A stretch of 64,000 bases of DNA from a virus. Under the pieces are notes generated by a model. It worked only from the letters and a program-made list of their open reading frames with translations, was not told the DNA's origin and made no database searches. Position numbers and translations under genes: made by a program. Positions within the stretch are counted from its first letter, which is position 1; every line of letters begins with the position of its first letter. Shown here one piece after another: positions 4,714 to 51,191 of the stretch. The DNA lies in the IMG/VR virus record IMGVR_UViG_3300032307_000797. The stretch is one strand, 5' to 3'.

Positions 4714-4735
4714 ATCTTTATTTTCCTTCTAAATC

Positions 4736-4767: not shown

Positions 4768-4772
4768 CTAAT

Positions 4773-4780: not shown

Positions 4781-4795
4781 CTTCTTCACGTAAAT

Positions 4796-4822
4796 AAAAA
4801 AACCCCGATTTCTCGGGGTTTT
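4796..4822 (-). terminator. Intrinsic terminator
   Basis: Minus strand AAAACCCCGA-GAAA-TCGGGGTTTTTTT, about 20 nt after the stop of 4843..6825. Confidence 0.85.
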
Positions 4823-4842
4823 AATGTTTGTGTTTGGTTAAG

Positions 4843-6825: not shown

Positions 6826-6851
6826 GTTTGTTTATAATTTTTCTTCTTTTA

Positions 6852-6859
6852 TATAAATA
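6852..6859 (-). promoter_or_regulatory. Putative late promoter TATTTATA
   Basis: 27 nt upstream of ATG 6825. Confidence 0.65.
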
Positions 6860-6872
6860 CTTAATTTTTCCT

Positions 6873-28368: not shown

Positions 28369-30516
28369 TTAGAAATCCAGATTTACAGAAAATACTTGTG
28401 TACCCGTTCTTTTAACAGGATTTGCGGTTTTTGCTACCACCAATACTTCTTTATTACTATTCAATAATGCAACCTCTGTAATTCTTTTGTCCATACCTGT
28501 TACATAGGTTGGATTCTGACTTACATTGAATTGTGAAGTGGGAAGGTTAACCAAGAAACTCATTCTTTCAATATCGGTAGCTCTTACTAATCTGATACTA
28601 CCGGGGAATGGTTGTTCATCACCGAATTGTGGTAATGAAGATGGTTCGTCAGGAACACTGCCCAAGAATGTTTCAATATCATATGGTGTTGCCCCTGTAT
28701 ACATCGGATTTGTAATAATAATTGAATTCGCAGTTAAATCTGATGGGTCAATCAATTGTCCGACTGTATGACCTGAAATGTATGGTGTGTAATCAATTAA
28801 TTTCCAACCATCATGTGTTGGTAATTCATTTGTATCGGTAATCTGAATTAATACTTGGAATTGGTTCGCAATGTGTCCTTCTACCGCACCTGTGCATAGA
28901 TTACTATTTTCCATGAATGGGAAACTACCATCTTCAAAATTGATATACAATTGTGATGGACGAACTAAACATGGGTCGTCTGCTGCAACTTCAACTTTTG
29001 AATAATAGTTACAAGGTAATCCGTTTAATGCAGTGTCACCGGTGTAATTAAACATGTATGTTACCCATACAGTTTGACCTGATGTTGTTCCTGTAAAGAA
29101 TGATTGTGATGCACTTACATCACTTGGAATCAATGCAACTTTAGGTGCCGGTAATGTATATTTTCTATTTGATTTATAATCAAGTATAGCAACCAACTCT
29201 TGGTCATCAAATACTACAGTTTTATTATTTACGAATACTTTACCAACTCTATAACCTTGTTCATCTAAAAGATATCTAAACTTTAAAAGTTGGTTTGCGT
29301 TTTTCAATGATTTCATGAAATAATCGGTGGTATCCATGGTAAACATTGCACCAATAGTTGTCCCTGTATTTCTATGATATTGTACAAATGGAATGTATAC
29401 CTCAAAATAATCTAAATCAGTAATTGAATTCTCATCAATGTCTTCTAACAAAGCTTCACCAATTACATTATTTGTACTGATGTAATCATCGTACTTGAAA
29501 AATCTTTCAGGGTCATTTTTTAAATCACCTAATTCAGAGTAGTGAATGATTGCGATAGTTCTTTGTTCTTCAGGGGTAACAATAATTTGTTCGTCAAATG
29601 AATTATAGTAAGATGTAACACCGGTGATTGTTCCACCCGTTGTGTTTACCCAAGTTTGTCCACTCGATGTTGTGTAACCCAAGAATTGTTTTGTTGATAC
29701 GTGTTTGTTTGATGTAAAACCGGTTAAGTTCTCATCAGATGATGGAACATCAAAACCAATTGGTTTTTTATCCCAAACAATATTCATTGCCCATGAATTA
29801 AGTTGTTGAGATGGGTCAATTTCTTCAGGTTTACAATTTGAATTTAATGGGGAAACAGGATATTCATTTTCACATGAATTACATATCACTTGAGCATTTC
29901 CACTACAACCTGAGAAATTTGGTAGATTTCTATCTACAGTAATGGTATTACCACTAACACTCATTACTTGATAAATTAAACTTGATGATTGTCCCGATAT
30001 AACAGGGTGAAGTGGGTCAGTACCATTGAATGTAGTAAACGCCACTGTGATAAATTCACAATCATTAAAACTAGCACCTGTTAGTACCACTAATGAAGTG
30101 GTTCCTGTGATTCCTGATAATGGAATCAACTGTGTTGTACATTCAATTGTTGTTCCTGTACATTCAACCGCATCGTATTCTTTGTAATCAGAAACAAAAC
30201 CCGCAGGTCCCATTACATTTCTAAGAGTTTCTGTTGTTGATACTTCTACAGGAATACCATATGTGGTTGAACCACTTGTTGAATCTAATTGATATGGGTA
30301 TTTTACTCCACCTTCTTTATCAAAAGGTGAAAAAACTGACTGATGAGGTACACCAGCCAAACCCGTTAATCCTGTAAATGGTGAAGTGTAATCAAATTCG
30401 GAATCTCCGATTTGGAAATAAGAGATAACAAAATTACCCTTAGCGATAGAATTTCTACCCTTTTGGGTTATTCTCGCCGATAAAAACTCCGAATTATTAT
30501 TACTTAGAAAACTCAT
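28369..30516 (-). CDS. Baseplate/tail-fibre attachment structural protein
   Basis: N-terminus ARITQKGR...FQIGDSE and C-terminus ITEVALLN...VVAK (split gpH-N-like anchor); late motif upstream. Confidence 0.7.
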   Translation of the reverse strand: MSFLSNNNSEFLSARITQKGRNSIAKGNFVISYFQIGDSEFDYTSPFTGLTGLAGVPHQSVFSPFDKEGGVKYPYQLDSTSGSTTYGIPVEVSTTETLRNVMGPAGFVSDYKEYDAVECTGTTIECTTQLIPLSGITGTTSLVVLTGASFNDCEFITVAFTTFNGTDPLHPVISGQSSSLIYQVMSVSGNTITVDRNLPNFSGCSGNAQVICNSCENEYPVSPLNSNCKPEEIDPSQQLNSWAMNIVWDKKPIGFDVPSSDENLTGFTSNKHVSTKQFLGYTTSSGQTWVNTTGGTITGVTSYYNSFDEQIIVTPEEQRTIAIIHYSELGDLKNDPERFFKYDDYISTNNVIGEALLEDIDENSITDLDYFEVYIPFVQYHRNTGTTIGAMFTMDTTDYFMKSLKNANQLLKFRYLLDEQGYRVGKVFVNNKTVVFDDQELVAILDYKSNRKYTLPAPKVALIPSDVSASQSFFTGTTSGQTVWVTYMFNYTGDTALNGLPCNYYSKVEVAADDPCLVRPSQLYINFEDGSFPFMENSNLCTGAVEGHIANQFQVLIQITDTNELPTHDGWKLIDYTPYISGHTVGQLIDPSDLTANSIIITNPMYTGATPYDIETFLGSVPDEPSSLPQFGDEQPFPGSIRLVRATDIERMSFLVNLPTSQFNVSQNPTYVTGMDKRITEVALLNSNKEVLVVAKTANPVKRTGTQVFSVNLDF

Positions 30517-30520
30517 ATTA

Positions 30521-30528
30521 TATAAATA
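30521..30528 (-). promoter_or_regulatory. Putative late promoter TATTTATA
   Basis: 5 nt upstream of ATG 30516. Confidence 0.65.
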
Positions 30529-30543
30529 CCTTTATTTCATTTA

Positions 30544-31452: not shown

Positions 31453-31502
31453 TGTTTACATAATATATCCAATAAATATTATATTGTAAATTTTATATTC
31501 AA

Positions 31503-33146: not shown

Positions 33147-33174
33147 CTATCTTAAATATAAAAAATATTGTTTA

Positions 33175-34239: not shown

Positions 34240-34246
34240 GTTATTT

Positions 34247-34254
34247 TATAAATA
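34247..34254 (-). promoter_or_regulatory. Putative late promoter TATTTATA
   Basis: 8 nt upstream of ATG 34239. Confidence 0.65.
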
Positions 34255-34266
34255 TTTTAAATCATT

Positions 34267-37200
34267 TTACATGTTACCTAATACACACCAATATCCGAAG
34301 CTAGAAATACATCCAAAGGTATCTGTCGGACATGGTTTTTGTAATCCCGGATGGTATGGACTTGTTGCCGTATTGTAACAACACGCATTATCACCAGGTG
34401 TTCCCGTACAATAGTTGTAACTTGAGTATACAGGAGTACTTACGTGAACTCTAATCTCATTATAAAGTGATAAATCTCGGATATCCACCCTTATGGTGTA
34501 ATAATTACCACTGATTGGGTTAGGGATATCGTACACACCGAAACTACAATCTCCATTAATACCATGACCAACCGCTACTCTAATATTACTTGATGGTGTA
34601 CCAGCATTTATATACCTAAATGACAACATATAACTGTATGATTTAGATGGTATAGTATCGGTTGTTTGTTGGGCGGTTGATGGTTTATTTGAGAACACTG
34701 GTGCCGCACCTGAAGTACCGTAATAACAATCAACTAAGTAAGATTCCCACTCAGTTAAGTTCTGATAAAGAGCATTACCCGTTGTACCTGCAATACTTTC
34801 ATATATTGTGAATGTGGTGTTTATGTTAGCAGCACAATTACAATCAGCCGTTGGTGTCGGTGTAGGTGTAGTTGTACGTGTTAACGTAGGTGTTGTTGTT
34901 CTTGTAGGTGTAACCGTTGGAGTTCTCGTTGGAGTACTCGTTGGAGTTCTCGTTGGAGTTTTAGTTACCGTTAATGTCGGTGTTTGAGTTAATGTCGGTG
35001 TGCTTGTAGATGTTTGAGTTGGTGTTGGGGTATTTTCAGCATTCACACAATCGTTTACTGTGTTACACTGCCCGCCAGAAACAAACGGTATTCTACATAT
35101 AATTTCTTCATCATTTTCCACGCAAACAGGGGTCGAATAGGAACCTGTGTCACTTACACAAATAAATGAGGTATATGTTCCATTACCATTATCCTTCGTT
35201 ATTAAACTAGTTATTGGTTCCCTAACAATATCGCCTCCATCACAAACACTATATCTAACCGATATTCCGACTAAAGTGTCCAAATCTTGTTCACTGTATG
35301 TTATACTGTAACATGTACAATCCGCCGGCAGTGTAGGTGTAGGTGTAGGTGTGCTTGTTGATGTTAATGTTGGGGTAGGTGTTGGACAATCGCAAGGAGT
35401 TGTTCCATCAAAATAATTTACCCAATTCAAACTACCTTCAAACGCATATAAACTATCGGTTTGAATACAATCTTCTATAATATAAATTCCTTGTTCAGTA
35501 TACAATCTCGATTTTTCACCACCACAACATGTTAGGTATGCAATATTAGCACCATCGGGACCCACCTCAAAAATCACATCCTGATAACATGCCGCTAAAA
35601 CAGTTTGCGTCATTGTTAATGTAGGAGTCGCGGTACTTGTTAAAGTAGGTGTTTCAGTCAATGTTGGTGTATTGGTGGCGGTTAATGTTGGAGTACTTGT
35701 CGACGTTAACGTTGGTGTTTGGGTTAATGTCGGAGTATTCGTAGCGGTTAACGTAGGAGTCTCCGTTTGTGTCGGTGTATTCGTAGCGGTTAACGTAGGT
35801 GTGTTAGTTGCAGTACTCGTACTTGTTAAAGTAGGTGTATTTGAGGCGGTTAATGTTGGAGTCTCAGTTAACGTTGGTGTATTCGTTGCAGTAAGGGTCG
35901 GTGTCTCTGTCGACGTGCTAGTACTTGTTAATGTTGGCGTATTCGTTGCAGTCAACGTCGGTGTATTAGTCGCCGTTAACGTCGGAGTATTAGTTGCCGT
36001 TAATGTAGGAGTTTCCGTTGAGGTACTTGTGCTCGTTAATGTAGGAGTATTAGTCGCCGTTAATGTCGGTGTATTCGTTGCTGTTAATGTAGGTGTTTGA
36101 GTGGCAGTTAACGTTGGTGTCTCAGTTAACGTTGGGGTATTCGTGGCTGTGAGGGTTGGGGTATTCGTTGCAGTACTCGTACTCGTTAATGTAGGAGTAT
36201 TCGTTGCAGTAAGGGTTGGTGTCTCCGTAGAAGTACTTGTACTTGTCAGAGTTGGAGTATTAGTGGCGGTCAATGTCGGTGTTTGAGTTGCGGTTAACGT
36301 AGGGGTTTGGGTCGCAGTCAATGTCGGAGTTTGAGTCGCAGTTAATGTTGGAGTTGGTGTTGGGGTAGGACATTCAGTTTCACTTGACGCATACGCCAAT
36401 CCACTACCATTATTTTCAACCACAAATACTGTGTTTGTACTTGCAGGATTCACATAGAATACCGTTGCACTTGAATTAGTGAGTGTTTGTAGTTCTGCAA
36501 TTGTCCAAGGATTAGTTGCATTGTTATCTTCATATAATATCTCACCCACAGATAGATTATCCTGAGCATAAATCGTTAATGAATTTCTACATCCACATGC
36601 CTCCACCAACGAAATATCAATACAGTAAATCGCACCATCTAAAACATTAGTTAATGTTGGTGTTTGAGTTGCAGTTAATGTTGGCGTTTCTGTTGAGGTA
36701 CTTGTACTTGTTAAAGTTGGTGTGTTAGTTGCGGTTAACGTTGGGGTACTCGTTGCGGTTAGAGTTGGTGTTTCCGTAGAAGTACTGGTACTTGTTAACG
36801 TCGGTGTCTGAGTCGCACTCATTGTTGGTGTCTCAGTTAACGTTGGTGTGTTAGTTGGTGTTAAAGTTGGTGTCTCAGTCAATGTTGGCGTATTCGTTGC
36901 AGTTAACGTCGGAGTTTCAGTCAGCGTCGGAGTATTAGTCGCTGTTAATGTTGGTGTTTCCGTTAATGTTGGAGTATTGGTACTTGTTAAAGTTGGGGTC
37001 TCAGTTAACGTTGACGTATTTGTTGGTGACGGAGTTGGTGTACTCGTTTCACCAGCTGTCGGAGTCAATGTAGGAGTTTCGGTTAATGTTGGTGTACTAG
37101 TACTTGTTACCGTTGGTGTATTGGTTGCAGTTAACGTCGGGGTCTCGGTCGATGTCAATGTCGGAGTCTCAGTTAACGTTGGCGTATTTGTTGCCGTTAA

Positions 37201-40200
37201 CGTAGGTGTTTCCGTTGATGTTACTGTTGTTGTATTTGTAGGAGTTACTGTTGGTGTTTCAGTTAACGTTGGAGTTGGTGTCGATGTTTCACCCGCAGTT
37301 GCAGTTAGTGTTGGGGTACTTGTTTCAGTTAATGTTGGAGTACTCGTTGACGTAACTGTCGGTGTAGGTGTAGGTGATGGACACTCATATGTATCACACA
37401 CCGGTAAACTCGCAAAATCGTGAATTGTCATGATTACACCATTAACGATTTCTACAACATATATTGGATAAGTGTTTTCTCCATTTGGAGTGTATACGTA
37501 GTTACCTGTTTGTGTTGATGGGAAATAAGTTGGTCCCGCACCATATAATTGTGTACCCGGATTAATTCCTGCAGATGAGTAATAGTATACACTACTTCCT
37601 GCGTAATTCCAGTTCGGGTGCGTTATAATATATTCCCAATCACACTTAACCTCCTCAACTGTTTTTGTTGTCCAATTTGTTGTTATAGTATCACAAACTC
37701 GACCTTCAAACCATAAGTTAACATTCACATCAGGAGTGCCCGCACCGCTTGGTGTACTTGTTAAAGTTGGTGTCTCAGTCAATGTTGGTGTATTCGTTGT
37801 AGTTAACGTCGGAGTTTCCGTTTGTGTTGGAGTATTTGTGGCGGTTGTTGTTGGGGTACTCGTAGGAATTGTTGAATTTTCACATTGAGTACATCCCGTA
37901 AACTGACCTTGTTGGAAATAGTTTGTTAAACTTAAAGTATTATCCCCACTCCACACACGATTTGGTGTACCTGAGGTTTGACCAATTGCATGGTAACAAA
38001 TACCCGAGTCGTCAGTAACAGTGTACGAATACCAGTTAATTGATGGACCTATCGTATATGGCATATATTCAAGAGGTAGACTCATTGAGTATATTGGATT
38101 GTATGGGTCTGTACAAAGAGCCAATGATGCAATAAATGTTGCACCTGAAGTCGATGTTAAAGTAGGTGTTGCGGTACTTGTAACCGTTGGTGTCGATGTT
38201 GACGTAACTGTTGGTGTTTGAGTTGGAACATCGGTACTTGTTGCCGTTAATGTCGGTGTCTGAGTCGCAGTTAACGTAGGTGTACTTGTTGGTACATCAG
38301 TCGATGTGTTCGTTGGTGTCTGAGTTATCGTCTCTGTCGGAGTATTTGTACTTGTAACCGTAGGTGTACTTGTCGAAGTAACCGTCGGTGTTGGGGTTAA
38401 TGTAGTTGTACTTGTCGGAGTAGGTGTCGGAGTTGCTCCCGGTTCACATACAAATGGAGATTCTTCTAAATCCTCATCTGTCGGTACATCTGAACAATGT
38501 ACAGGGTCAACATAATATTGTCCTAATTTGAAATCAATATTAGGATGTTTATCATATTGATGCTTCATCAATAATTGATGGTTATCATTACCATCAAAAA
38601 CAATCATGAATTCATCCGTTAATGGTGAGCCATCTTTTTCTACATTTAAATTAAAATATAATCCCGTATCACAGTAATTTAAATCAACATTTAATACTTC
38701 GATTGGGAAACCGTATTGATTAATTAAGAAATCACCCTTATCATATAGTTCTTCAGGGTGGTCGCAACATGGTTCAATAAAATCAGTTGGTCTTATTTGT
38801 AATTCTTCAGGGAATCTATCATCAAAATGATATGTACCATTTGTTACACCACCAAAATCTTCAATAAATTTATTTGTATAAACACGTAATTGTGTTGTTG
38901 GTAAAACTTCAAATACTTCGATATCACCGGTTGTTGTTTCTCCCGTAATAACATTCTTCTTAACTGAACCTAAACATTCAATATCCGTAACTAATAATTT
39001 TGAATATTCGTATGTAAATGAATATCCGTTTTGTGATGCATCTTGGAATTGTTGGTTTGTTAATCCCGAACATGGTAGATAATCTGCACTTAAAATGTAT
39101 TCACCAACTTGTAGTTGATAAACTGTTTTTTCAGTGATTGTTCCACCTGAAATATAAGTTTCGATATCACCACTTGTCGTCGTACTATCGATTGTTAATC
39201 CTGAAGATACAACCAATACAATTGAACTATCCTTTAAACCGTAATTAAAGTTTGATTTATATTCGACTTTTGGTTGTATTGTGTATCCTGTATAATTGTC
39301 ACAGAATGTTGCTCCCGAAATAACAGAAATAGTATTTCCTGTTGAACCTTGGTAACCTTCTATTACAAAAATTTCTGTGTGACTTTTCCCACTTGGTACG
39401 GGGCATGGGTCATGTTCAACTTTCGCTTGTAAACCTTCGATTTTGAATTTAACTTCATTGTTGGCCGCGTCGATGATATTGAAATCAATTACATCATATT
39501 CCGTAACACCCGTTAATTTAAATTTACAATCATAACCGGCAACTTTTTCAATATAAACATCAGCATTCTGACTGTGTCCACTTGTACAATTTGCATAAAT
39601 GTAGAACGGCCATGTGTGATTTTTCTGAACCCCAAATTGTGCTCCGATAATATCAATATAGATATCCGATACCATAACACATCCCGCAGGTTCTTCACAG
39701 TAGTATTCACCATCACCACTAACCTCAACACTTAATCTATCGTTAACTTTTGTTGTTCTATAATCGGCCTCGAATCTATAATCGAAATAATCTTTAACAG
39801 AACAATCTCCAATACCATATTTTATTGATGAGAATTTAATTATCTCTTCACCGTCTTCATTGGTGAAGATTTCATAATTAACAACCGCAACAGTTTCTGT
39901 ACTATATGAATGTCCCGTTGCACCTGTAAATGGAGCGTATGGTTCGTAACCTGCCGTGTATCTTGTGATTGTTATTGAATCAATTAATTCACTTAATGCA
40001 CTTAACCATAGTTCCTTAATTTTAACAATATCAGGTTCTAAATAATCTTTGTAATCACAAATAAGTGCCAAATTAACAGGGTCATTATCTGTTAAATCAG
40101 TACAACCCGTCATTGGGAATGGGTTGAATAGTTGTGCACTGTTTGTGGTGTTTGTTGTACCACTAACAACAACTGTCATCCCATCGGTTAAATCAGAATA

Positions 40201-42699
40201 ATCCGGTCCACCGTAAATAACTCCATCGATTTCAATTATTGGATAGTATGTTACTCCTGTTAGATTAATTAATCCTCTAAAGTTTGTTTCTTCCCCAAGT
40301 AATGTTTCAAGGTCTTCTTCAATCGCGGTTTCAAAATCGGGATATAAATCCTCAATAAACTCCATTGGTTGGCAATCAAACACGTATGGATACTTCGGTC
40401 TTCCGAAAAGATTGTTTTCAATTAAATTACCACCAGTCCACAGAGTTGTAGCCGGAACTAACTGTTCCACTAATTGTACCCAATAAGGACTGATTTTATT
40501 TACGAACTCAGCAGAATCAATAAATGTAAATGGAGTGAATCCACTCTGAGCCATGTAATCACGATAGATATCCTCAAGAACGATATAGTTCTTTTTATAT
40601 CTAATTGTGTGTGAATTCTTTATTACTTTATGTATAAAAGTATCGACGAACTGAGCAAACGTAATACCTGTTTGTGGTGTCAATAAATTAGTTGAACCAA
40701 AAGAAATTTCTAAATCTCTACTCTTTCTGAAGATATCATAATTGATTGCATTTGATGGGGAAATATGAATATTAATGTTCTTTCTATTCAATATTAATGA
40801 TGAACCATCCTCAACATCGTGAGCTTTTAAATTATCAATTTCCGCTTGTAATCCGTAACCTGTATCTAAACCCGGTAATGTTCTAAACACATCAAAATAA
40901 TCCTCACCATATGTGTAAGATTTATTTTTTGTTTTAATTGTTTTTGTTCTACCAGTTAAAACCGAATTCTCGTCATCTAAAATTGTTGGTGAACGGTGGT
41001 CCAAAGTAATATCGTACCAACCCGCACCTTTTTCAAAGAATATTTCTTCACTTTCACTGAACGCCCTTCTTGGTAAACCTGTATCGGGGTCAACAGGGAA
41101 ACCATCTCTATCAAAAGTAGTTGTTCCTGTTACAGTAATTGTATTGTACGTATATCCTGAAGTATCGAAACTTGCAGAAATATATGTTTTCTCACCAGCA
41201 ATTACGTCGTATATATCTTGTTCCAAATCAGAACTTGCAGGCATCGAAGTAACTTTGTACACATATTCATTAATCTTAATTAATGGTTCAGGTGCACCTA
41301 AGAATTTTAAGAAGAATTCAACAGACGCTCTCGTACCTTTTGATTTAAAGATGTACGCAAGATTCACCATTAATCTTCTATAGAATTCATTTTCAGCATC
41401 CATTTGGTTGAATCCTGTAGAAACTCCTTGGTATGTTGAGGAAAGACGAGTGTACATCGCTTCCTCCAATGATTTTTCATCAAATAGATTTGTGGTTGAC
41501 AAACCAAGATTCTCTGAAAGGTTTTTTAATAAAATATCCGGTAGGTTATTGATACCATCATAACTTACATTTCTCATGTAAGCAATGTTATCAATGTACT
41601 TCTTTACTGAGTCAAAACTTTGACCGTATAATTGGAAGACACTCTGTGTTCTTTGGTCGTCAGTATCAAATTCAAATAACTGTGGAGAAGCCAAAAATCT
41701 AACCATTAAGTTAGATTTGTATCCATCAATTTGGTCAGATATGTCTTTTAGATTTTGAATATAAGATTCATACTCAAGACCACTTATTTGTATGTTCCAC
41801 CCATCACTTAATAATGGCCAACTATATTCTACGTTCTGTAATGTTGTTCTTGAACCATCAGTACTTTCTTGCGGTACTTGAAACGCAGAAGTATATATTG
41901 GGGTTGATTCTCTATTCAAAAGAGATTCTTCAACATCATCTAATCCCGCGAAGAATTCCTCAACAACACCATTATTTGGTCTGATAAGGAAATTATCCGA
42001 GTATGTTGTTGCACCACTAAATGGATTACCAATGACAACAAAAACCAACTCATTAGATGAGTTTGGTTCATTATATTGGATAATTGGGTAACTTTCATCA
42101 TTAACAAACAAAACATACTTGTTATATGATGAATAAAAATTTCTGAGTTCGTTTTCAGTTGTTGGTTTTATTACCGTATTTGGTTCAACTAATGATATAT
42201 CAAATGGATTGAACAACTTAGATGATTGAACATATAATGTCGTTCTGTTTAAACTAAAATCATGTGATATATTGTAAGCAGAAAATATGTTATTACCAAT
42301 CGGGGTATCCGCAACAATTGATATTGCTCCGGGGAACTTTTTAATAATACGAGTAATAGAAACTAAAATTCTATCTTTCAAAGAACCGAACATTGATTTG
42401 TCCGCATTTCTTTTATTACTCTTAAAACGTATTGTACTTTTTCTTTGAGAACCTCCACCGGTTGATGATTGTGTGGTCGTTACTGCCGAATCTTCTTTTT
42501 TAATGGTATCAAGAGTTAAAAATTCAGAGAACGGATTGTTTCTAAATGTTTTAGCATCTTTTTCAGGAATGGTTTTATCAATATCAAAACTTGTGTTGGC
42601 AAGAGCAGGACTACCCGTAGTGATTTGTCTTCCAACTAAATTATCACTAAATGTTTCTGCTCCGCTAGCCGCCTGACTTGGTACCTTTCTTCTTGCCAT
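34267..42699 (-). CDS. Giant baseplate wedge-anchored protein (2810 aa) with mucin-like TP stalks and Cys-rich modules
   Basis: LPDILL...IFKSKGTRASVEFFLKFLG (gp7/P2 gpI-like wedge motif); the C-terminal half alternates TPT repeats and small Cys domains. Confidence 0.8.
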   Translation of the reverse strand: MARRKVPSQAASGAETFSDNLVGRQITTGSPALANTSFDIDKTIPEKDAKTFRNNPFSEFLTLDTIKKEDSAVTTTQSSTGGGSQRKSTIRFKSNKRNADKSMFGSLKDRILVSITRIIKKFPGAISIVADTPIGNNIFSAYNISHDFSLNRTTLYVQSSKLFNPFDISLVEPNTVIKPTTENELRNFYSSYNKYVLFVNDESYPIIQYNEPNSSNELVFVVIGNPFSGATTYSDNFLIRPNNGVVEEFFAGLDDVEESLLNRESTPIYTSAFQVPQESTDGSRTTLQNVEYSWPLLSDGWNIQISGLEYESYIQNLKDISDQIDGYKSNLMVRFLASPQLFEFDTDDQRTQSVFQLYGQSFDSVKKYIDNIAYMRNVSYDGINNLPDILLKNLSENLGLSTTNLFDEKSLEEAMYTRLSSTYQGVSTGFNQMDAENEFYRRLMVNLAYIFKSKGTRASVEFFLKFLGAPEPLIKINEYVYKVTSMPASSDLEQDIYDVIAGEKTYISASFDTSGYTYNTITVTGTTTFDRDGFPVDPDTGLPRRAFSESEEIFFEKGAGWYDITLDHRSPTILDDENSVLTGRTKTIKTKNKSYTYGEDYFDVFRTLPGLDTGYGLQAEIDNLKAHDVEDGSSLILNRKNINIHISPSNAINYDIFRKSRDLEISFGSTNLLTPQTGITFAQFVDTFIHKVIKNSHTIRYKKNYIVLEDIYRDYMAQSGFTPFTFIDSAEFVNKISPYWVQLVEQLVPATTLWTGGNLIENNLFGRPKYPYVFDCQPMEFIEDLYPDFETAIEEDLETLLGEETNFRGLINLTGVTYYPIIEIDGVIYGGPDYSDLTDGMTVVVSGTTNTTNSAQLFNPFPMTGCTDLTDNDPVNLALICDYKDYLEPDIVKIKELWLSALSELIDSITITRYTAGYEPYAPFTGATGHSYSTETVAVVNYEIFTNEDGEEIIKFSSIKYGIGDCSVKDYFDYRFEADYRTTKVNDRLSVEVSGDGEYYCEEPAGCVMVSDIYIDIIGAQFGVQKNHTWPFYIYANCTSGHSQNADVYIEKVAGYDCKFKLTGVTEYDVIDFNIIDAANNEVKFKIEGLQAKVEHDPCPVPSGKSHTEIFVIEGYQGSTGNTISVISGATFCDNYTGYTIQPKVEYKSNFNYGLKDSSIVLVVSSGLTIDSTTTSGDIETYISGGTITEKTVYQLQVGEYILSADYLPCSGLTNQQFQDASQNGYSFTYEYSKLLVTDIECLGSVKKNVITGETTTGDIEVFEVLPTTQLRVYTNKFIEDFGGVTNGTYHFDDRFPEELQIRPTDFIEPCCDHPEELYDKGDFLINQYGFPIEVLNVDLNYCDTGLYFNLNVEKDGSPLTDEFMIVFDGNDNHQLLMKHQYDKHPNIDFKLGQYYVDPVHCSDVPTDEDLEESPFVCEPGATPTPTPTSTTTLTPTPTVTSTSTPTVTSTNTPTETITQTPTNTSTDVPTSTPTLTATQTPTLTATSTDVPTQTPTVTSTSTPTVTSTATPTLTSTSGATFIASLALCTDPYNPIYSMSLPLEYMPYTIGPSINWYSYTVTDDSGICYHAIGQTSGTPNRVWSGDNTLSLTNYFQQGQFTGCTQCENSTIPTSTPTTTATNTPTQTETPTLTTTNTPTLTETPTLTSTPSGAGTPDVNVNLWFEGRVCDTITTNWTTKTVEEVKCDWEYIITHPNWNYAGSSVYYYSSAGINPGTQLYGAGPTYFPSTQTGNYVYTPNGENTYPIYVVEIVNGVIMTIHDFASLPVCDTYECPSPTPTPTVTSTSTPTLTETSTPTLTATAGETSTPTPTLTETPTVTPTNTTTVTSTETPTLTATNTPTLTETPTLTSTETPTLTATNTPTVTSTSTPTLTETPTLTPTAGETSTPTPSPTNTSTLTETPTLTSTNTPTLTETPTLTATNTPTLTETPTLTATNTPTLTETPTLTPTNTPTLTETPTMSATQTPTLTSTSTSTETPTLTATSTPTLTATNTPTLTSTSTSTETPTLTATQTPTLTNVLDGAIYCIDISLVEACGCRNSLTIYAQDNLSVGEILYEDNNATNPWTIAELQTLTNSSATVFYVNPASTNTVFVVENNGSGLAYASSETECPTPTPTPTLTATQTPTLTATQTPTLTATQTPTLTATNTPTLTSTSTSTETPTLTATNTPTLTSTSTATNTPTLTATNTPTLTETPTLTATQTPTLTATNTPTLTATNTPTLTSTSTSTETPTLTATNTPTLTATNTPTLTATNTPTLTSTSTSTETPTLTATNTPTLTETPTLTASNTPTLTSTSTATNTPTLTATNTPTQTETPTLTATNTPTLTQTPTLTSTSTPTLTATNTPTLTETPTLTSTATPTLTMTQTVLAACYQDVIFEVGPDGANIAYLTCCGGEKSRLYTEQGIYIIEDCIQTDSLYAFEGSLNWVNYFDGTTPCDCPTPTPTLTSTSTPTPTPTLPADCTCYSITYSEQDLDTLVGISVRYSVCDGGDIVREPITSLITKDNGNGTYTSFICVSDTGSYSTPVCVENDEEIICRIPFVSGGQCNTVNDCVNAENTPTPTQTSTSTPTLTQTPTLTVTKTPTRTPTSTPTRTPTVTPTRTTTPTLTRTTTPTPTPTADCNCAANINTTFTIYESIAGTTGNALYQNLTEWESYLVDCYYGTSGAAPVFSNKPSTAQQTTDTIPSKSYSYMLSFRYINAGTPSSNIRVAVGHGINGDCSFGVYDIPNPISGNYYTIRVDIRDLSLYNEIRVHVSTPVYSSYNYCTGTPGDNACCYNTATSPYHPGLQKPCPTDTFGCISSFGYWCVLGNM
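35612..37378 (-). repeat. Two long coding Thr-Pro repeat blocks (about 35612-36368 and 36648-37378)
   Basis: Units TPTLTE, TPTLTAT(N/Q) and TPTLTSTSTSTE, with variable synonymous codons. Confidence 0.9.
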
Positions 42700-43616: not shown

Positions 43617-43641
43617 GATTTTTTATTAATAAATATAAATT

Positions 43642-44754
43642 TTATTGTTTTCTTATTTTAAAATATCCATTTACATAGATATCTAATTCACCTGTGTTAT
43701 CGATTTCTCCTAATCTTAATGTTTTTTCTAATACCCCTTGTTTACCTCTTTCAACGAATATGTCCGAGAAAATAGTTGGTTCGTCAATAAACCCTAAGAA
43801 ATGTTCGTTCCTCGTAATTGCGAAGTTCATCACCTCTTCTTTTGTGAAACCTGAGGTACTACCTGTAATAGTGGTCACTCCGTCCTCAAAATCACGATAA
43901 TATAAATTATCAATAGTATATGCACTGTACGATATACCTGAAGTTGTTCCCGTAGTTACACCTGAATAAGTGTTGGAACCGTAAAGTTTCTTTTCGTCGA
44001 TTCTACTCTTACCAATTGCCGCATATGTAAATGTGGTATTTCCCGTGGTTCCTGTAGTTGCATACTCTAAATCATTTAAATAATTTAAAGTTTGACCAGT
44101 GATTGTTGAGTATGGTATTGTAAATCCACTAAACGTACCTAAAGGGTCAGATACCGTCGTGTTTGACGGTACCGTTACCTGTTTTTCTAATTTAAAATCT
44201 AACCATGGAGTACTCAATGATATTGATATCGTTTTAACTCCTGTTGAACCGTAAGTTTTTGTTACAGAATTTAAAGTAGTTCCTGTGTGGGTAGTTAATG
44301 TACTTGTGGTTGAATCTCCCCAATCTACGGTGAAATTTACCGTATGGATTTCAGATACTTTACTAGCATCAACGGTGTTATAAACCTGAACGGTATTTCC
44401 TGTTTGGGTATATGAAAAATTACATATTTGTTCAACTTGTTCAATATTACCATCGAACCCAACCATAACTCCCATTTCATCCACAGATGATTCTAAGAAC
44501 AATGGAACGTCATAACTACCCATTGCGTCGGATTGTGTGATAGATGACCATGTCGACCCTAACCACTCGTAATAACCCGTAGGAACACTACCGGTGACGT
44601 TATAAACCACATCACCAACTGATGGTGGTAATGTTGTCGAACCCGACCATGGAACCCAATTCCCGAAATAATCATACCAATACTCTCCTGTTAGTGAGTG
44701 TAATCTCACATTAGATATGTTTTTTCTTAATATTTTATATGTGTTTTTTTCCAT
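43642..44754 (-). CDS. Structural protein with PKD-like segment
   Basis: FTVDWGD...KTY...GVKTISI. Confidence 0.7.
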   Translation of the reverse strand: MEKNTYKILRKNISNVRLHSLTGEYWYDYFGNWVPWSGSTTLPPSVGDVVYNVTGSVPTGYYEWLGSTWSSITQSDAMGSYDVPLFLESSVDEMGVMVGFDGNIEQVEQICNFSYTQTGNTVQVYNTVDASKVSEIHTVNFTVDWGDSTTSTLTTHTGTTLNSVTKTYGSTGVKTISISLSTPWLDFKLEKQVTVPSNTTVSDPLGTFSGFTIPYSTITGQTLNYLNDLEYATTGTTGNTTFTYAAIGKSRIDEKKLYGSNTYSGVTTGTTSGISYSAYTIDNLYYRDFEDGVTTITGSTSGFTKEEVMNFAITRNEHFLGFIDEPTIFSDIFVERGKQGVLEKTLRLGEIDNTGELDIYVNGYFKIRKQ

Positions 44755-45605
44755 TATAAAAACTTTTCATAAAATACTATTGGGTCATTAGTTTCTCCGA
44801 TTCTTGAACCAACAGAACCATTAAATCTGAAAACTTGATATGAATAATCTGACCTATCAATAACCACCTTATAATACATATCATTTTCTTCTACGATAAT
44901 ATCATTTGGGGTTTTTGTTTTATTTGTAAAATCGAATACTTCTGCCGTTTTTGCGTTGTAAAACTTTGCCGTCATGTAAAATGTGTTACCCGTCAATGTT
45001 GTTTCATCAAAGGGAGTATCATCACCGAACCAGAAGAAGTACATATTTTCTTTATTTCTATAATTTGAACCCATGAATACAGGAAAATATATGTAATCAT
45101 TTAGAGAAACTGTACCCCCACTTGTAGTTCCGGTATAAAAAACTTTCTCACCGATTGGTAATGCCAAATTTTTAGCAAAAACCATTCTTCTATTTATACT
45201 TGTTGGTGCCTCATCATTCGGGGTTTTATAAAACTCTAATCTGAAAAAACTTTCAGTAGATTGTTTTAACATTAACGCATTTTCTTGTAATGTTATATCC
45301 ATTAATTGGTAATCCTGTTCATAGGTTACACCTGTAATAATTGGATTTGCCGGATTTGAAGTGTTGTAGTCGTAGTTACCGAAATAGAAATAAAACCATA
45401 TATCAGTTTGTGTAAATCCTGTTGTGTTCGTGTACGGTTTGTGGATATATCTTACTGTTTCATAATTCTCCGTTGGGTTAATGATTTCATAAAGAATTTC
45501 CTTTTCCATCATTTCCGCATTCTCCGTCCACCCCAAATCAGATTTGAATGAGTGTGTTGGGTTAACAACGATATTTTGGTCGGTATTTTGTCTTAATATT
45601 TCCAC
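44754..45605 (-). CDS. Structural protein (baseplate region)
   Basis: 283 aa in the late operon. Confidence 0.7.
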   Translation of the reverse strand: MEILRQNTDQNIVVNPTHSFKSDLGWTENAEMMEKEILYEIINPTENYETVRYIHKPYTNTTGFTQTDIWFYFYFGNYDYNTSNPANPIITGVTYEQDYQLMDITLQENALMLKQSTESFFRLEFYKTPNDEAPTSINRRMVFAKNLALPIGEKVFYTGTTSGGTVSLNDYIYFPVFMGSNYRNKENMYFFWFGDDTPFDETTLTGNTFYMTAKFYNAKTAEVFDFTNKTKTPNDIIVEENDMYYKVVIDRSDYSYQVFRFNGSVGSRIGETNDPIVFYEKFL

Positions 45606-45606
45606 G

Positions 45607-47349
45607 TTAACACTTAAATCTTTTTACTATCTTAATTCCGTCTTGTTTATTTGTGTATTGTTGTTCATTACGTAAATAGAAATTAATATCATTCTTTACA
45701 TAATGTATGTTGTTTATAAATGGGTAACTTGTGCCAAAACCTTCGGGGTCAATAAACCCATGGTCATATAAATCTCTCCATTTCCACAATAACTCGTCCT
45801 CAAAGTATTTTGCGTTTTGTGGTAATCCATATACTTGACTTGTATTTGAAGATTCAACATATGGCGATAACTGTCTTAGTTTTACCCTATGATGTGGTTG
45901 ATAGTATAAACCTACCATATTATCAACAGACGCACCTGAGAAGGTTGCCGAATCATCTTGGTCGTGGTCAAAAATTGTGGTGGGTGATGTTATCTTATGG
46001 TACGCTTCACTAACCACTCTTTCCTTTAATTCTGATTTATTATATTCAATAAATGCACCGTTAAGAGTGGTTCCTGTTGTAATGGTTCCTCCCGAAATAA
46101 ACGTTGTTCCTGACTTTGTGAATGAACCATATGGTACGGTAGTTTCTACTGATGTTGTACCACTAAAATGTTGGTCAATCCATGTGTCATGGAAATTAAA
46201 TTTATAACCAACTTTATATGGGTAATCAAAATATCCATTTTTGTTTTTGAATACAACTGAAACATAAACATCTGTTGGTAAGTACCCAAGGTTGTTGGTT
46301 AATCCCGTTAATGTAAACGGCTCTTTGAAATCATAAATCAACGATTCCATTCTATTTCTAACCACTAACACATCATTATCACCAACACTATTTTCAAATA
46401 CCAATTTTCTTTCGTTTTCCCATATAGATGATTCAAATCCAATCTTATCAAGGATGAACGCATCTCCCATGGTTATCACTTTATGTTTATGAACATAGTA
46501 TGTTGATATGGTCTCATCTAATCTGTTTCTATTAATACATCTTTTACCAAAAACTACCGTCGATAATGTGGTGCCCGATGGTATTTCAGATTTACTAATT
46601 TCTAACACATAATTTTCAGAATTATATAATTCACTTCCAACCGAAACAACTGAGAATGTTCTACCGGATTGTGGTACCGTGTTATTTAATGTACCACCCG
46701 AAATCACCACATACTCACCCCTACTAATACCGTGTTCAACAGGACTCGTTAAGAAGTACGATGATTTGTTTTCTGTAACTCTAAACGGTATTCCATCACC
46801 CGCAGTAAAACTATAAACAGTATTACCACTTAACGTGTATTTCATCGGGTGAGACGAGTCACCTGAATAAACATATGATAAACAGATATTCCAATTATGG
46901 AATGGTGCCGTGATTGGGGTTATTTCAATGTGGTCAGTTTGACCCGTAATAACAATATTTTGAGTGAATGCCGATAACACACTTGTTGATGTCGGGTCAT
47001 TAGTTTCCCTTACAACATCATCTCTTAAAAACGCAAATTCATTGTATGGTAAAAATCCATCAAATCTATTACCATCATCATACACCAAATATAAATTCTT
47101 TTTTAGTGGTTGGTATCCTGTTGTACCACTATAAAGGTTTCTAAAAACCATTTTAAGTTTTCCATGAATCTTATAATGAGGACTTTCATTTCTTTCTTTA
47201 GCAAAAAGAATTGATGTGTCTAATAGAATAGTTCTATCACCTTCTCTGAGCAAATTTTTAGATTCATCTAAATTTATTTTTAGATTTAAATCTTCATCAA
47301 TTGCTCCGAAGAATTTTTTAGATGGTAATATGAGTCTTTTCTTTTCCAT
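45607..47349 (-). CDS. Structural protein (baseplate region)
   Basis: 580 aa; TSPVEHGISRGEYV motif. Confidence 0.7.
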   Translation of the reverse strand: MEKKRLILPSKKFFGAIDEDLNLKINLDESKNLLREGDRTILLDTSILFAKERNESPHYKIHGKLKMVFRNLYSGTTGYQPLKKNLYLVYDDGNRFDGFLPYNEFAFLRDDVVRETNDPTSTSVLSAFTQNIVITGQTDHIEITPITAPFHNWNICLSYVYSGDSSHPMKYTLSGNTVYSFTAGDGIPFRVTENKSSYFLTSPVEHGISRGEYVVISGGTLNNTVPQSGRTFSVVSVGSELYNSENYVLEISKSEIPSGTTLSTVVFGKRCINRNRLDETISTYYVHKHKVITMGDAFILDKIGFESSIWENERKLVFENSVGDNDVLVVRNRMESLIYDFKEPFTLTGLTNNLGYLPTDVYVSVVFKNKNGYFDYPYKVGYKFNFHDTWIDQHFSGTTSVETTVPYGSFTKSGTTFISGGTITTGTTLNGAFIEYNKSELKERVVSEAYHKITSPTTIFDHDQDDSATFSGASVDNMVGLYYQPHHRVKLRQLSPYVESSNTSQVYGLPQNAKYFEDELLWKWRDLYDHGFIDPEGFGTSYPFINNIHYVKNDINFYLRNEQQYTNKQDGIKIVKRFKC

Positions 47350-50300
47350 TATTCAGCTGGTGGGAACGCCCCTAAAGGACCAAAACGTTTTATGAATTTA
47401 TCAACACCTGTGTTACCCGGTCTTAATCCAAAATAGAATTGGAATGGGGTCGATAATATTTGTTTATTACCCGAATAGTAATCTTGTGTTTTTCTTATTA
47501 TAAAATCCATTGTACTATCCCAAGTCAATGAATGCCACGTACCCGCGGTACCGTATCTTGTATACAGTATACCCGACGTTGGGGTTGTTACAGTTCCACC
47601 GGTTACCCACAAATACGTAAAGCCAGGATATTGAGTATCATATGACGTGTGATTATCTGTTACAGAATCTTCAACAACATCAAATTCAACTGCGTTTGTT
47701 ACATTTAAACCACTGATTGATAAGCCACTAAAAGTGTATGTCATCGGTAACAATAAATAAGGGTCAGATGGGTCATTTGTACCACCTGTTAATGTATAAC
47801 CATAAGTCATTCCTTGTAATGGTTGACTTTCAATCAATGTATAATCCCAAGATTGGTCGTCCTTTGTTGCATCGTTATATGGACCAAATCCCGGACCTCC
47901 TTTATCCCATAAAAAGAAAGGAACTTCTTGGGAAGCTTCAGTTAATCTACCCGGTTCATTTAAACATGCACGGACTCTTTGACCATCGTTATCAAATTCC
48001 ATGGTAATTGGTGTCGGTCCCCATACTGTTGTCCCACTTTTAAAAACCGTAGGATATGTTTCGGGGTCAAGAATTTGATAAGAGTAACCCAAATATTTTG
48101 GACTCTGTAAATTAAATTCTTCAATACCAACTTCATTATTAATTGATATTAATTGAAGTATGTCTCCGTCTAAAACTTTTCTACCAAATCCTGATTGTTG
48201 GAATCCATCGTTGTCAAAAAATTCATTCAAACTAAAGTTTTCGTCTGCCTCGGTATCCATTCTATAGTTAATAACTAACCCAAGTAATTCCCCAAAACTT
48301 TGGAATGATGATGGACCAATTGACCTTACAACTGAACAATTAGGGTCAAGTGCGGGGTCTGTACATATTTCTTTAATAAATTCATCTCTCGGACCTAAAT
48401 CAACCATTGTTGTTGGGTGCCCTAATCTTTTTTGATTTGTTGAGTATGTTTCGCCTTGGAATACACCGAATGCAGATGATTTAGTTGAACGATAATAGAA
48501 ACGTTTCACCTCATCCCCACTAGTTGTTTCTTTGACTTTATAATAAAGTAAGTCTTCACAATAATTTGTTCGAGCATAATTTAAATCGAGAGCTTCTTCA
48601 TCATCCCATCTAACCTTTGCCTTGAATTGGAAAAAATATAATGAACCACTTAACCAATTATCGATATAACCGTAGTTTACAATTCCTCCACAGAACATTG
48701 TTCCTACTCTTTTTCTTCTTCTATATTCTTTTAGTATTGAGAATATTCTACCAACACTTTGTGAGCCAGGAAGAAAATAGAATACTCCGTTACTGAATTC
48801 ACTATAAGCCCTACCTCCAGTGTCTGCCGGAGTATTTGGTGAATATGTGTCACCAGCATAAGATGTTGGTAATCCGTATTCATTATTGTTTGATAATCTG
48901 GTTGCAGTAACATCCATTCCCGCGGTGTACGTTGAGGATGGGGTTCTACCTGTTCCTATATAATACGTCTCAACTATATTTTCATTGTATGGTATATCAT
49001 ATAATTCACATCCTTCCTCTAATTGAGTCGTGACTGATAATGGATTTTCAACTTCGTTTACGTCTCTAATTTCACAATCATATACTTGTGAATCACTAAA
49101 TAAACCTTCAGGGTCTTGGAATGTTAATGTGTATCCCGTACAGATTGGGTTTAATGGGTCGGTAGTGTCATAATCAACAACGATACTAAATCCAGTATCC
49201 CCTGAACTTGTTATTGGGGTCAGAGGAACAATTGTGGTAGTTCCACCCGATGTTGTGTGTGTTAAAACATAGTTCGCCTGATTATTAACAAAATCTTGAG
49301 CACTTGTACATTGGTCAGTATTCCATATTAATGTTGCACCACTACATGTACCTCCGGTATATGGGTTAGTACTATAATAAACATCACTACCTACAATTAA
49401 ATTTCTATTTCCTTCATCACTACTACCAGTAATGTCAATAGTACCAACTTCACAATAATCAAGTTCACTTACCTCACCCTGTGAAGTACCAAATTCACTA
49501 TCACCATTACATTCTTCACATTCAGGATAGTTTATTAAGTATAATTTTCTTTGAGTCGCATCTTGGAATCTATATGCCCCTTTTCTGATTGTTCTTGCCA
49601 ATCTTCTAATTGGCCAGAAATCCACAGCATCCGCCAAACTATGTAGAAAATACGCAACCACATTTGTTAAGAAAAATGTGAATAGATTAATTAAGTGTTC
49701 AAATAATAATAAAACATCCGCGATTAATAATTGGAATGTATAATTTTTAAATCCAAAATTAACGGGTGGAGTTAATGAACTTCCCGCACAATCTTCTTCT
49801 TCTGAAGGTACCAATTCTTTTAAACCTAAGAATCTATCTTTTGTAAATGAATCCCCTTTAAAATATGAACCTTGGAAAGATGATACCGTGTAAACTTTGT
49901 TATAATTTAATCTATAGAAATAATCTTCGGGATAATAAAACCCATCAGTGTTACTCAAAATATAATTCTCAACCGCATGTGAAGGATAATCATCATAGTT
50001 TGTTGAGAACGCGTATGATGCGTCTACATTATTTGAATATTCTCTGATATTAGGGACTAAATAATCGGCATTTGCACGTACTCTTTCCAATCCTTCATCA
50101 GATAAACTAAATCTAAATCTATAACATGCTGAAGTTGGAATACCCTTATTTGGGTCATTGGTGTATTCATTTTCACCAAACTCGTTGGTGTATAAATAAT
50201 CCATATTCATTGTTACAGGAACAATGAATGAACCATCCTCGTCAATATCCTCATTAAGTTCTACTTGTTCAAGAATTGGTCTATATTCTTCGTCTTTTCT

Positions 50301-51191
50301 ACTTGAGAATCGTATTGCTTCTACCTTACCTGTTTTAGTAACAAGGTCACATTTACGACCCATTTTTCTTCTTGGTGTACAGTTCTTGTTTACCGAACTT
50401 TTACCAGTGTCGGTGAATGTTCCACCAATAACATATGCCTTAGGTTCAATCCTTACCCCTTTACTTGACAAATCAAAGTCAGTTCTTGTGATTCCAATCT
50501 CACATAAATCTTCATTACCCCAAAATGGGTAAACTTCTATAGTTTGATTGAATGAAACAATTTGTGGTAATGCGTCGAGGTCTTCTGATGTTTTAAAAGT
50601 GTATTCGTTTTTGAATTGGTCGACACCCATACCTTGACGAATAAAATCGTCAGGTCTTAATGAAAAACAACCAATATCGGAAAGGTCAACATCAACATGA
50701 ATTGTTTGGGTGCCGAGCGGTACTCCCCAAATCATGAAATCACCCGCATCATTTGTTTTTGCGGTGTACTTGTAATATTTTTCGTAAACCTCAAGAATCT
50801 CTTCTCGAGTTAAAACGTCTTTTTGGTCAGGAAATGTACCTGTCGGAGCATGTCCTCCGTGTTGTTTTCTTGAGGGTAAGAGATTATACCTGTGTCCTGT
50901 GTCATTTTTATCGGTTACCGATGTAAATGGATATAATTGAGAAACAATAGGGTCTTCACTATCAGTTTCAGTTAAAGGAACAAATATTGAAATTCTTGCA
51001 TTTGGTACTCCAAATCCGTTGTTAACAGAAATTCTACCGACAACTACCCCATAATCGGAGCACATTGATGTATAAACATCCGTTTGGGTGAATTTTAATG
51101 ATAAAATTTCCAATAAGTCATAATCCTGTTTTAACTCGACTGTGACTTTTTGGTCCCTACCAATATTTGTACTTATTCTGTGTTTCTGCAT
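47349..51191 (-). CDS. Large structural protein (1280 aa) with N-terminal beta-sandwich
   Basis: GVVVGRI...GVPNARISIF...AKTNDAGDFMIWGVPLG; internal hydrophobic helix near aa 490-525. Confidence 0.75.
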   Translation of the reverse strand: MQKHRISTNIGRDQKVTVELKQDYDLLEILSLKFTQTDVYTSMCSDYGVVVGRISVNNGFGVPNARISIFVPLTETDSEDPIVSQLYPFTSVTDKNDTGHRYNLLPSRKQHGGHAPTGTFPDQKDVLTREEILEVYEKYYKYTAKTNDAGDFMIWGVPLGTQTIHVDVDLSDIGCFSLRPDDFIRQGMGVDQFKNEYTFKTSEDLDALPQIVSFNQTIEVYPFWGNEDLCEIGITRTDFDLSSKGVRIEPKAYVIGGTFTDTGKSSVNKNCTPRRKMGRKCDLVTKTGKVEAIRFSSRKDEEYRPILEQVELNEDIDEDGSFIVPVTMNMDYLYTNEFGENEYTNDPNKGIPTSACYRFRFSLSDEGLERVRANADYLVPNIREYSNNVDASYAFSTNYDDYPSHAVENYILSNTDGFYYPEDYFYRLNYNKVYTVSSFQGSYFKGDSFTKDRFLGLKELVPSEEEDCAGSSLTPPVNFGFKNYTFQLLIADVLLLFEHLINLFTFFLTNVVAYFLHSLADAVDFWPIRRLARTIRKGAYRFQDATQRKLYLINYPECEECNGDSEFGTSQGEVSELDYCEVGTIDITGSSDEGNRNLIVGSDVYYSTNPYTGGTCSGATLIWNTDQCTSAQDFVNNQANYVLTHTTSGGTTTIVPLTPITSSGDTGFSIVVDYDTTDPLNPICTGYTLTFQDPEGLFSDSQVYDCEIRDVNEVENPLSVTTQLEEGCELYDIPYNENIVETYYIGTGRTPSSTYTAGMDVTATRLSNNNEYGLPTSYAGDTYSPNTPADTGGRAYSEFSNGVFYFLPGSQSVGRIFSILKEYRRRKRVGTMFCGGIVNYGYIDNWLSGSLYFFQFKAKVRWDDEEALDLNYARTNYCEDLLYYKVKETTSGDEVKRFYYRSTKSSAFGVFQGETYSTNQKRLGHPTTMVDLGPRDEFIKEICTDPALDPNCSVVRSIGPSSFQSFGELLGLVINYRMDTEADENFSLNEFFDNDGFQQSGFGRKVLDGDILQLISINNEVGIEEFNLQSPKYLGYSYQILDPETYPTVFKSGTTVWGPTPITMEFDNDGQRVRACLNEPGRLTEASQEVPFFLWDKGGPGFGPYNDATKDDQSWDYTLIESQPLQGMTYGYTLTGGTNDPSDPYLLLPMTYTFSGLSISGLNVTNAVEFDVVEDSVTDNHTSYDTQYPGFTYLWVTGGTVTTPTSGILYTRYGTAGTWHSLTWDSTMDFIIRKTQDYYSGNKQILSTPFQFYFGLRPGNTGVDKFIKRFGPLGAFPPAE

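Follow-up and report, generated by a model that had tools for sequence, protein, structure and literature searches.

Why should several unrelated structural proteins of one phage be strewn with the same tetrapeptide? The question is raised by a 64,000-nucleotide stretch of the IMG/VR record IMGVR_UViG_3300032307_000797 (hereafter the window), which comes from an uncultured jumbo phage of a clade described as abundant, giant and freshwater. Minus-strand genes for virion proteins between 28369 and 51191 encode many copies of the motif [ST]-G-x-[ST], which the initial annotation had put forward as a virion-specific candidate sequon of a phage protein-glycosylation system. Here it is proposed, tentatively and at not quite an even chance, that [ST]-G-x-T, with Ser less often in the last place, may be a clade-specific acceptor signal on a defined set of virion proteins, most likely for O-glycosylation. 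Literature searches returned no report of the motif.

Motif sites were counted against all [ST]G sites of each protein, and enrichment was expressed as z relative to 1000-2000 residue shuffles of the same protein. The richest carrier is a 715-amino-acid (aa) virion protein of unassigned fold (28369..30516), with the motif at 19 of its 24 [ST]G sites against 1.9 expected (z 12.8). It is joined by a 580-aa multi-domain baseplate protein (45607..47349; 13/14, expected 1.2, z 11.1), a 283-aa baseplate-module protein (44754..45605; 5/5, expected 0.34, z 8.3) and a 370-aa baseplate-module protein (43642..44754; 12/17, expected 2.2, z 6.8). The earlier hand counts for these four proteins were reproduced exactly. 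The fifth carrier, a 1280-aa baseplate protein (47349..51191; 13/24, z 5.9), has its motifs clustered at residues 581-760 (window positions 48912..49451, 8/8) and 1041-1280 (4/8). A 2810-aa giant protein (34267..42699) is motif-rich in residues 1-1610 (37870..42699; 23/38, z 10.3), whereas its C-terminal 1200 residues (34267..37869), made up of Thr/Pro-rich stalks and Cys-rich modules, have the motif at 0 of 9 sites against 7.3 expected (z -2.9). This motif-free C-terminal half indicates that the motif is domain-specific and no by-product of Ser/Thr richness. The emptiness of the Thr/Pro-rich half could in itself reflect avoidance, or another surface chemistry.

The negative controls named in the initial annotation also gave the same figures again, with 0/5 in the ribonucleotide reductase large subunit NrdA (53622..56051, minus strand) and 0/4 in the Baseplate_J/gp6-like wedge protein (51250..53082, minus strand). 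The Ser/Thr/Gly-rich, LamG (Laminin_G_3) fibre-like genes of the minus strand at 280..7559 are at background (0/6, 1/8, 0/5, 3/15, 9/31 and 3/9), and all remaining open reading frames (ORFs) of the window, enzymes included, stay at z <= 1.8. The composition-preserving shuffles that had been suggested as a check therefore separate the five virion proteins (z 5.9-12.8) and the N-terminal part of the giant protein from the other ORFs, and a compositional artefact is ruled out by these shuffles together with the background level of the LamG fibres and the motif-free Thr/Pro-rich stalk. The term "virion-specific" has to be narrowed to a subset of the virion proteins and to some of their domains, with the LamG fibres, which are the most distal, and the Thr/Pro-rich stalks excluded.

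The five carriers are mutually unrelated in sequence, the best pair in an all-against-all BLAST having an E value of 0.008 over 54-65 residues, and this rules out, at sequence level, paralogy or one repeated fold among them. The weak local similarity is between residues 79-132 of the 283-aa protein and residues 673-737 of the 1280-aa protein, around a D/N-P-x-N-P-I-x-TG-x-T segment, and the two proteins may have one small domain in common. A hand-picked motif is ruled out as well: when about 48,000 three-residue patterns were scanned without bias, TG.T came first (29 instances against 2.6 expected, p 1e-20) and SG.T second (23 against 2.0, p 7e-17), both far ahead of the others. The earlier claim of a short linear signal, selected at the protein level and present in several sequence-unrelated virion proteins, is sustained. 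A signal at the DNA level is likewise ruled out: the codons are varied, as had been noticed, at all three fixed positions (ACN, TCN and AGT for position 1, all four GGN for Gly), and the remaining five reading frames contain almost no instances, so that the signal resides in the protein.

The motif follows a strict grammar. The Ser/Thr residues on the two sides of Gly, at -1 and +2, depend on each other (odds ratio 14, p 1e-18), Gly alone is tolerated in the middle with no substitute residue, and the last position strongly prefers Thr (Thr 52, Ser 10), position 1 being nearly even (Thr 33, Ser 29). Both flanks are depleted of Asn and Asp (0.17x); because these residues are the usual turn-capping equivalents of Ser and Thr, the hydroxyl itself seems to matter. 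The wider context favors Thr at -2 and hydrophobic residues at -1 and +4, with few charges over -3 to +7. The residue before the motif is hydrophobic in 61% of cases, Ser/Thr in 23% and charged in 6%, and the residues listed after the Thr of position 4 are S, I, V, L, G, T and F, with no Trp. Gly at +3 is found in 1 of 84 [ST]G sites (0.16x). The motifs had been called scattered rather than tandem, which is mostly right; adjacent doubles and triples do occur, such as TGTTSGQT, SGVTTGTTSGIS, TGSTSGFT and TGTTSGGT, and double tags of the type TGTTSGxT are present in three different proteins.

A search of 50,697 deposited phage records matched the window neither by DNA nor by protein. In IMG/VR, the window has hundreds of relatives, on contigs of up to 310 kb, and one of these, G001 (310 kb), is collinear with the window in its region 158-223 kb. 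Whole-genome scans of G001 and of a second relative, G002 (288 kb), confined the enrichment to about a dozen virion proteins, namely the tail sheath, a few further proteins of very large size and the orthologues of the window carriers. The orthologues of the 715-aa protein stay enriched (18/26 in G001 and 15/20 in G002), and the approximately 250 other ORFs per genome show no flank coupling (odds ratios 1.2 and 0.9). Among non-carrier ORFs (z<2), G002 has 55 motifs against 85.9 expected and G001 has 101 against 104; the deficit in G002 could mean that the motif is mildly avoided outside virion proteins, or could come from selecting ORFs at z<2.

Three far clades, L106, L107 and L125, have homologues of all five window families at background, with the sole exception of a mild 5/10 in the 370-aa family. 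The counts are 3/20 (L125), 1/18 (L107) and 3/19 (L106) in homologues of the 1280-aa protein at 39-45% identity, 3/17 and 3/13 in the unenriched homologues of the giant protein (2114 aa in L125 and 974 aa in L106), and 0-4 motifs in distant homologues of the 580-aa protein at 25-35% identity. In T4, the baseplate, sheath, short fibre, whisker and head proteins have the motif at 20 of 118 [ST]G sites against 16.4 expected, which rules out a general trait of contractile-tail virions. Since homologues with the same folds in other clades, and T4, lack the enrichment, it is not a property of the folds. In a maximum-likelihood tree of the 580-aa family (quick search), proteins with 9-17 motifs form one clade with an SH-like approximate likelihood ratio test (SH-aLRT) support of 99, the next outgroups are intermediate (3-6 motifs) and the sister clade has 0-1; judged from these sequences, the motif-rich state has one origin, in one clade. 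A different use of the tetrapeptide is seen at L106:20672-21808, at the start of a 4605-aa protein, where a tandem V-TGGT-YSNGT-x6-TNN-TGGT-F-x-V-TGF has the motif at 20 of 26 [ST]G sites; the tetrapeptide is there the unit from which a regular beta-repeat is built, and the baseplate proteins of this clade are without the scattered motif.

Within the motif-rich clade, single sites come and go while the number per protein is held. In the 580-aa family, motifs occupy 49 alignment columns, of which only 4 are kept in at least 90% of the sequences, and each sequence has 12.4±1.7 motifs (range 9-17) against 1.2 expected. The 370-aa family (44 orthologues) has 33 motif columns, 5 of them kept in at least 90%, and 10.8±1.6 motifs per sequence. 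At the well-kept sites of this clade, Gly does not vary, Ser and Thr replace each other at positions 1 and 4, and position 3 is unconstrained; for example, the site at residue 174 of the 580-aa protein reads SGGT, SGNT, TGNT, TGGT, TGST or SGAT in 54 of 54 sequences. In some orthologues of the 283-aa protein, the double tag TGTTSGGT is shorter by 4 to 7 residues, about one tag or more. Some sites overlay older Gly turns, as with TGLT where distant homologues have [SNE]-G-L-x-D, and several others occupy short clade-specific loop insertions. At residues 73-79, the 580-aa protein has a segment Y-[ST]-G-x-[ST]-x-Y, predicted by the model as a short strand, that nearly all distant homologues conserve, those of motif-poor clades included; it is probably an ancient site with a structural or functional role and separate from the clade-specific tags.

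With 32 close sequences, AlphaFold modelling of the 580-aa protein reached only pLDDT 41.6 and was unusable; the addition of distant homologues gave a confident model (pLDDT 87.2, pTM 0.83). In it, two of the 13 motifs are at hairpin turns, four at the C-terminal ends of strands, four in loops and three at strand starts; as modelled, all sites are at boundaries or in loops, yet they form no single regular turn. These mixed contexts agree with the expectation of the initial annotation that the motif is neither one repeated fold nor a regular turn. In the sheath of G001, 9 of the 12 motifs are in residues 120-301; this stretch is outside the conserved C-terminal core (571-943), which matches the sheath families, and T4 gp18 suggests by analogy that it is in the outer part. 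In a 1602-aa protein of G001, the motifs appear from the sequence to be flanked by helical segments, e.g., TGGT-ATLKEMI-SGGT. The whole fold of the 580-aa protein had no match in the PDB by Foldseek, nor did its family profile in a PDB sequence search. Its residues 184-279 form a six-stranded small beta-barrel with a best Z of 7.5 (VIA-align), a generic level, and at the same generic level (Z 6-7.5) this barrel resembles a domain of gpJ, the tail-tip protein of lambda, as well as FAD (flavin adenine dinucleotide)-binding barrels and those of elongation-factor domain II.

The strict hydroxyl-Gly-x-hydroxyl requirement, the single origin, the restriction to certain proteins and domains, the placement in loops and the turnover with a kept number are together what a short linear signal read by a trans-acting factor would be expected to show. 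Under the proposed O-glycosylation, the motif would mark exposed loops and the ends of strands in the 715-aa protein, in the giant protein (N-terminal half) and in four proteins of the baseplate module; in relatives, it would also mark the outer sheath part and several other large virion proteins. The reader would most likely be a soluble enzyme of the phage that works in the cytoplasm, on proteins already folded or in the course of assembly, and it may add a group to one or other of the motif's two hydroxyl residues. A phage glycosyltransferase is the leading candidate, and accessory sugar genes, which differ between relatives, could then elongate or vary the glycan. A more far-reaching version, to be held with somewhat greater reserve, would be that the freshwater jumbo-phage clade runs its own cytoplasmic O-glycosylation with the sequon [ST]-G-x-T, gained once, and that about a dozen proteins of tail, baseplate and sheath, with ten to twenty sequons apiece, form a programmable sugar coat that changes in composition with the accessory clusters.

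Glycosyltransferase genes are plentiful in the relatives. GT2-type matches (PF00535) number 5-9 in each of the relatives G001-G003, and two GT2-like genes are core among five relative records. One, a canonical GT2 of 245 aa, is present in 5/5 records and has GtrB-like enzymes as its nearest phage families. The other, a weak GT2 of 259 aa, is present in 4/5, the miss falling in a record that is 75% complete; its family has more than 3000 members, the best 120 listed all being at least 70% identical, and it had no match in the far-clade fragments of up to 46 kb, which are too partial to indicate absence. In G001, the core genes are at 70 kb and 265 kb and the baseplate module is at 186-212 kb. 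An accessory cluster of the same genome (107470..114576; L094:12470-19576) includes two GT1-like genes, two GT2 genes, a methyltransferase and a UDP-galactopyranose mutase (E 1e-73), the last of which implies galactofuranose-containing glycans. A BLAST search found no counterpart of the genes of this cluster in G002, and the mutase is absent from both G002 and G003; since these two keep the motif, the cluster is ruled out as the common reader. A GT9/BAHT-type enzyme (PF01075) was not found in the five relatives (61-93% complete), while control genomes were matched.

The gene that had been put forward as the candidate enzyme, at 1..283 of the window, did not hold up well in this role. Neither Pfam nor PHROG matches its 94-residue fragment, and in G001 the 239-aa homologue is likewise without a match in these two or in NCBIfam; the likeness to a glycosyltransferase comes from GT-A-fold look-alikes of this homologue in the ESM Atlas alone (GT8/GT6-like, TM score 0.66-0.68). 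The gene has no counterpart in G002, which keeps the motif, and is thus unlikely to be the common reader.

Several observations weigh against O-glycosylation as the explanation. The covalent modification itself, the identity of the sugar, the modified residue and the acting enzyme are all inferred here from sequences and a predicted model. The carriers form a defined set, but the most exposed parts of the virion, the LamG fibres and the Thr/Pro-rich stalks, are without the motif. Pfam and PHROG searches found no transferase between 28369 and 53536, so that none adjoins the enriched genes, and one of the two core glycosyltransferases resembles GtrB-type enzymes, which alter host surface sugars. 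The Ser/Thr residues of the motif are only modestly better conserved than other Ser/Thr (77-81% against 63-70%), and its Gly is conserved no better than other Gly. The tetrapeptide is also structural elsewhere, as in the tandem TGGTYSNGT...TNNTGGTF and an SprB-domain protein with SGGT in a far relative, and the Y-[ST]-G-x-[ST]-x-Y segment conserved everywhere indicates that a structural use exists in the 580-aa family as well.

These points lead to the serious, if somewhat less likely, alternative that the motif is read by nothing and is a structural style of loop, in which Gly breaks one element and Thr starts the next strand or caps a helix, fixed repeatedly as a stabiliser of uncharged surface loops. 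All 13 modelled sites are in loops or where strand and loop meet, places natural for Gly and Ser/Thr, and the charge-poor context with hydrophobic residues at -1 and +4, as well as Thr over Ser at position 4 as at strand starts, would follow from such a role. One site conserved in all clades is in a short strand, a far relative builds a tandem beta-repeat from TGGT, and the modest conservation of single sites and the motif-free fibres and stalks fit it too. A hairpin motif recurring in unrelated folds has a precedent in the Asp-box (S-x-D-x-G-x-T-W). However, homologues of the same fold in other clades, and T4, do without the motif, the sites fall into at least four kinds of context instead of one turn type, and Asn and Asp, the normal capping substitutes, are strongly depleted. 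It is also difficult to see in this light why sites should turn over with their number per protein held ten-fold over expectation, or why the beta-rich, Ser/Thr/Gly-rich LamG fibres of the same phage should be at background.

Two further readings keep a reader of the motif and change its nature. The motif might be recognised without covalent change, as a docking site for an assembly chaperone or a decoration protein, or as arrays of hydroxyls binding host polysaccharide or other surfaces. This is rather unlikely: the fixed set of virion proteins and domains and the placement in loops fit it, and a stable copy number amid turnover would fit any selection for motif density, but ten to twenty dispersed copies on many proteins would be unusual for a chaperone signal, the LamG fibres, which are of the receptor-binding type, are without the motif, and no candidate partner was found. 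Slightly less likely still, the acceptor could serve for a non-sugar modification (phosphorylation, sulfation or acylation) by another enzyme of the phage or the host, given that a strict hydroxyl at both flanks fits any O-linked chemistry. The analysis linked no kinase or sulfotransferase to the motif, and tested none, and glycosyltransferases are the most numerous modifying enzymes in the relatives. In addition, most Ser/Thr kinases prefer Ser, the opposite of the Thr preference at position 4 (52:10).

Known systems offer partial parallels to a glycosylated virion of this kind. In mycobacteriophages, phage-encoded cytoplasmic glycosyltransferases reportedly put O-linked sugars on virion structural proteins, at sites in C-terminal extensions, rich in Ser/Thr, of the capsid and tail-tube subunits, and are encoded beside the structural genes. 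The genomes of the relatives similarly have phage-encoded glycosyltransferase genes, the window itself having only the GT-A-like fragment at 2..283; in contrast, a four-residue motif is here spread over the loops of ten or more tail and baseplate proteins, with no transferase adjacent. A passage of PMC12582341 cites Freeman et al. 2023 (its reference 80) on virion O-glycosylation of the mycobacteriophages Che8, Corndog and Myrna. The autotransporter heptosyltransferases (BAHT) TibC and AAH add sugars in the cytoplasm at multiple sites of the folded, beta-rich surface proteins TibA and AIDA-I (PMC4358343), the acceptor Ser preceding a small residue in beta-helix loops. In TibA, Ser-313 is modified within N-S-G-G, in a loop protruding into the enzyme, and a second mapped site is T-S-A-A; BAHT is a GT-B/GT9-like dodecamer with an iron finger, modifies Ser and not Thr, and does not require Thr at +3 (PMC4358343). 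The phage proteins likewise have Ser/Thr followed by Gly in loops. However, Thr is about as frequent as Ser at their position 1 (33:29), the one modelled carrier is no beta-helix, and Glyco_transf_9 is unmatched in the five relatives.

Among sequons, N-x-[ST] and the viral glycan shields built from it share with the phage motif a free middle, a hydroxyl two places after the key residue and a preference for Thr, as well as a lineage-specific gain and a turnover in surface loops with the number maintained. This is an analogy alone, as the phage motif has no Asn and would be read in another compartment and with no oligosaccharyltransferase. The Bacteroidota signal D-[ST]-[AILVMT] is also an O-glycosylation sequon of three to four residues on many unrelated proteins; unlike the system considered here, it is periplasmic and host-encoded and requires Asp before Ser/Thr. 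The phage motif has a hydrophobic residue or Thr in that place and an obligatory Gly after the first Ser/Thr, and Asp is unfavoured before Ser/Thr-Gly and depleted together with Asn at the flanks (0.17x), so that the difference from the Bacteroidota sequon claimed at the outset is real. The eukaryotic glycosaminoglycan site S-G-x-G has acidic residues nearby, whereas the window proteins have Gly at +3 in 1/84 sites and depleted charges over -3 to +7. The Asp-box, a short G-x-T-hydrophobic element recurring in unrelated folds, is the best precedent for a purely structural role; it differs in needing an upstream Ser and Asp and a Trp after Thr, and in forming one type of hairpin, while the phage motif is Asp-depleted (0.17x before G.[ST]), has a hydrophobic residue or Thr two before Gly, has no Trp and occurs in mixed contexts.

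Should the motif prove to be an acceptor site, virion modification in bacteriophages would have its first defined sequon, one that could be read from the sequence of thousands of metagenomic contigs. It would become testable which phage transferases act on proteins and not on DNA or host glycans, and what a sugar coat does in lake water, such as resistance to proteases or grazing, stickiness, or masking of the tail until the fibres engage; short tags of this type might also serve the glyco-engineering of phage particles. If it is purely structural, one clade would have rewritten many unrelated proteins in an unusual convergent loop design, and the case would be a warning for sequon-hunting by eye.

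The carriers are encoded on the minus strand of the window. In reading order, a UvsX-like gene and a DnaB-type helicase stand ahead of NrdA, and the baseplate module then begins with a 150-aa protein (53084..53536), the syntenic counterparts of which carry a GPW_gp25 domain in relatives, followed by the gp6-like wedge protein and the 1280-, 580-, 283- and 370-aa proteins. A 305-aa protein is encoded between the 370-aa and the giant protein, and three Thr-rich proteins between the giant and the 715-aa protein. No convincing Pfam or PHROG family was found for the 1280-, 580-, 283-, 370-, 305- and 715-aa proteins. Beyond the 715-aa protein are an SbcC-like nuclease subunit (21149..23491, minus-strand reading), a D12-class N6-adenine DNA methyltransferase (9588..10475), an AAA ATPase (8222..9298), the LamG fibre-like genes and, at the end, the C-terminal 94 residues of the putative GT-A-like gene (2..283, minus strand). 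The structural genes are thus split by replication and repair genes (D12 methyltransferase, AAA ATPase and SbcC-like), which lie between the fibre genes and the 715-aa protein.

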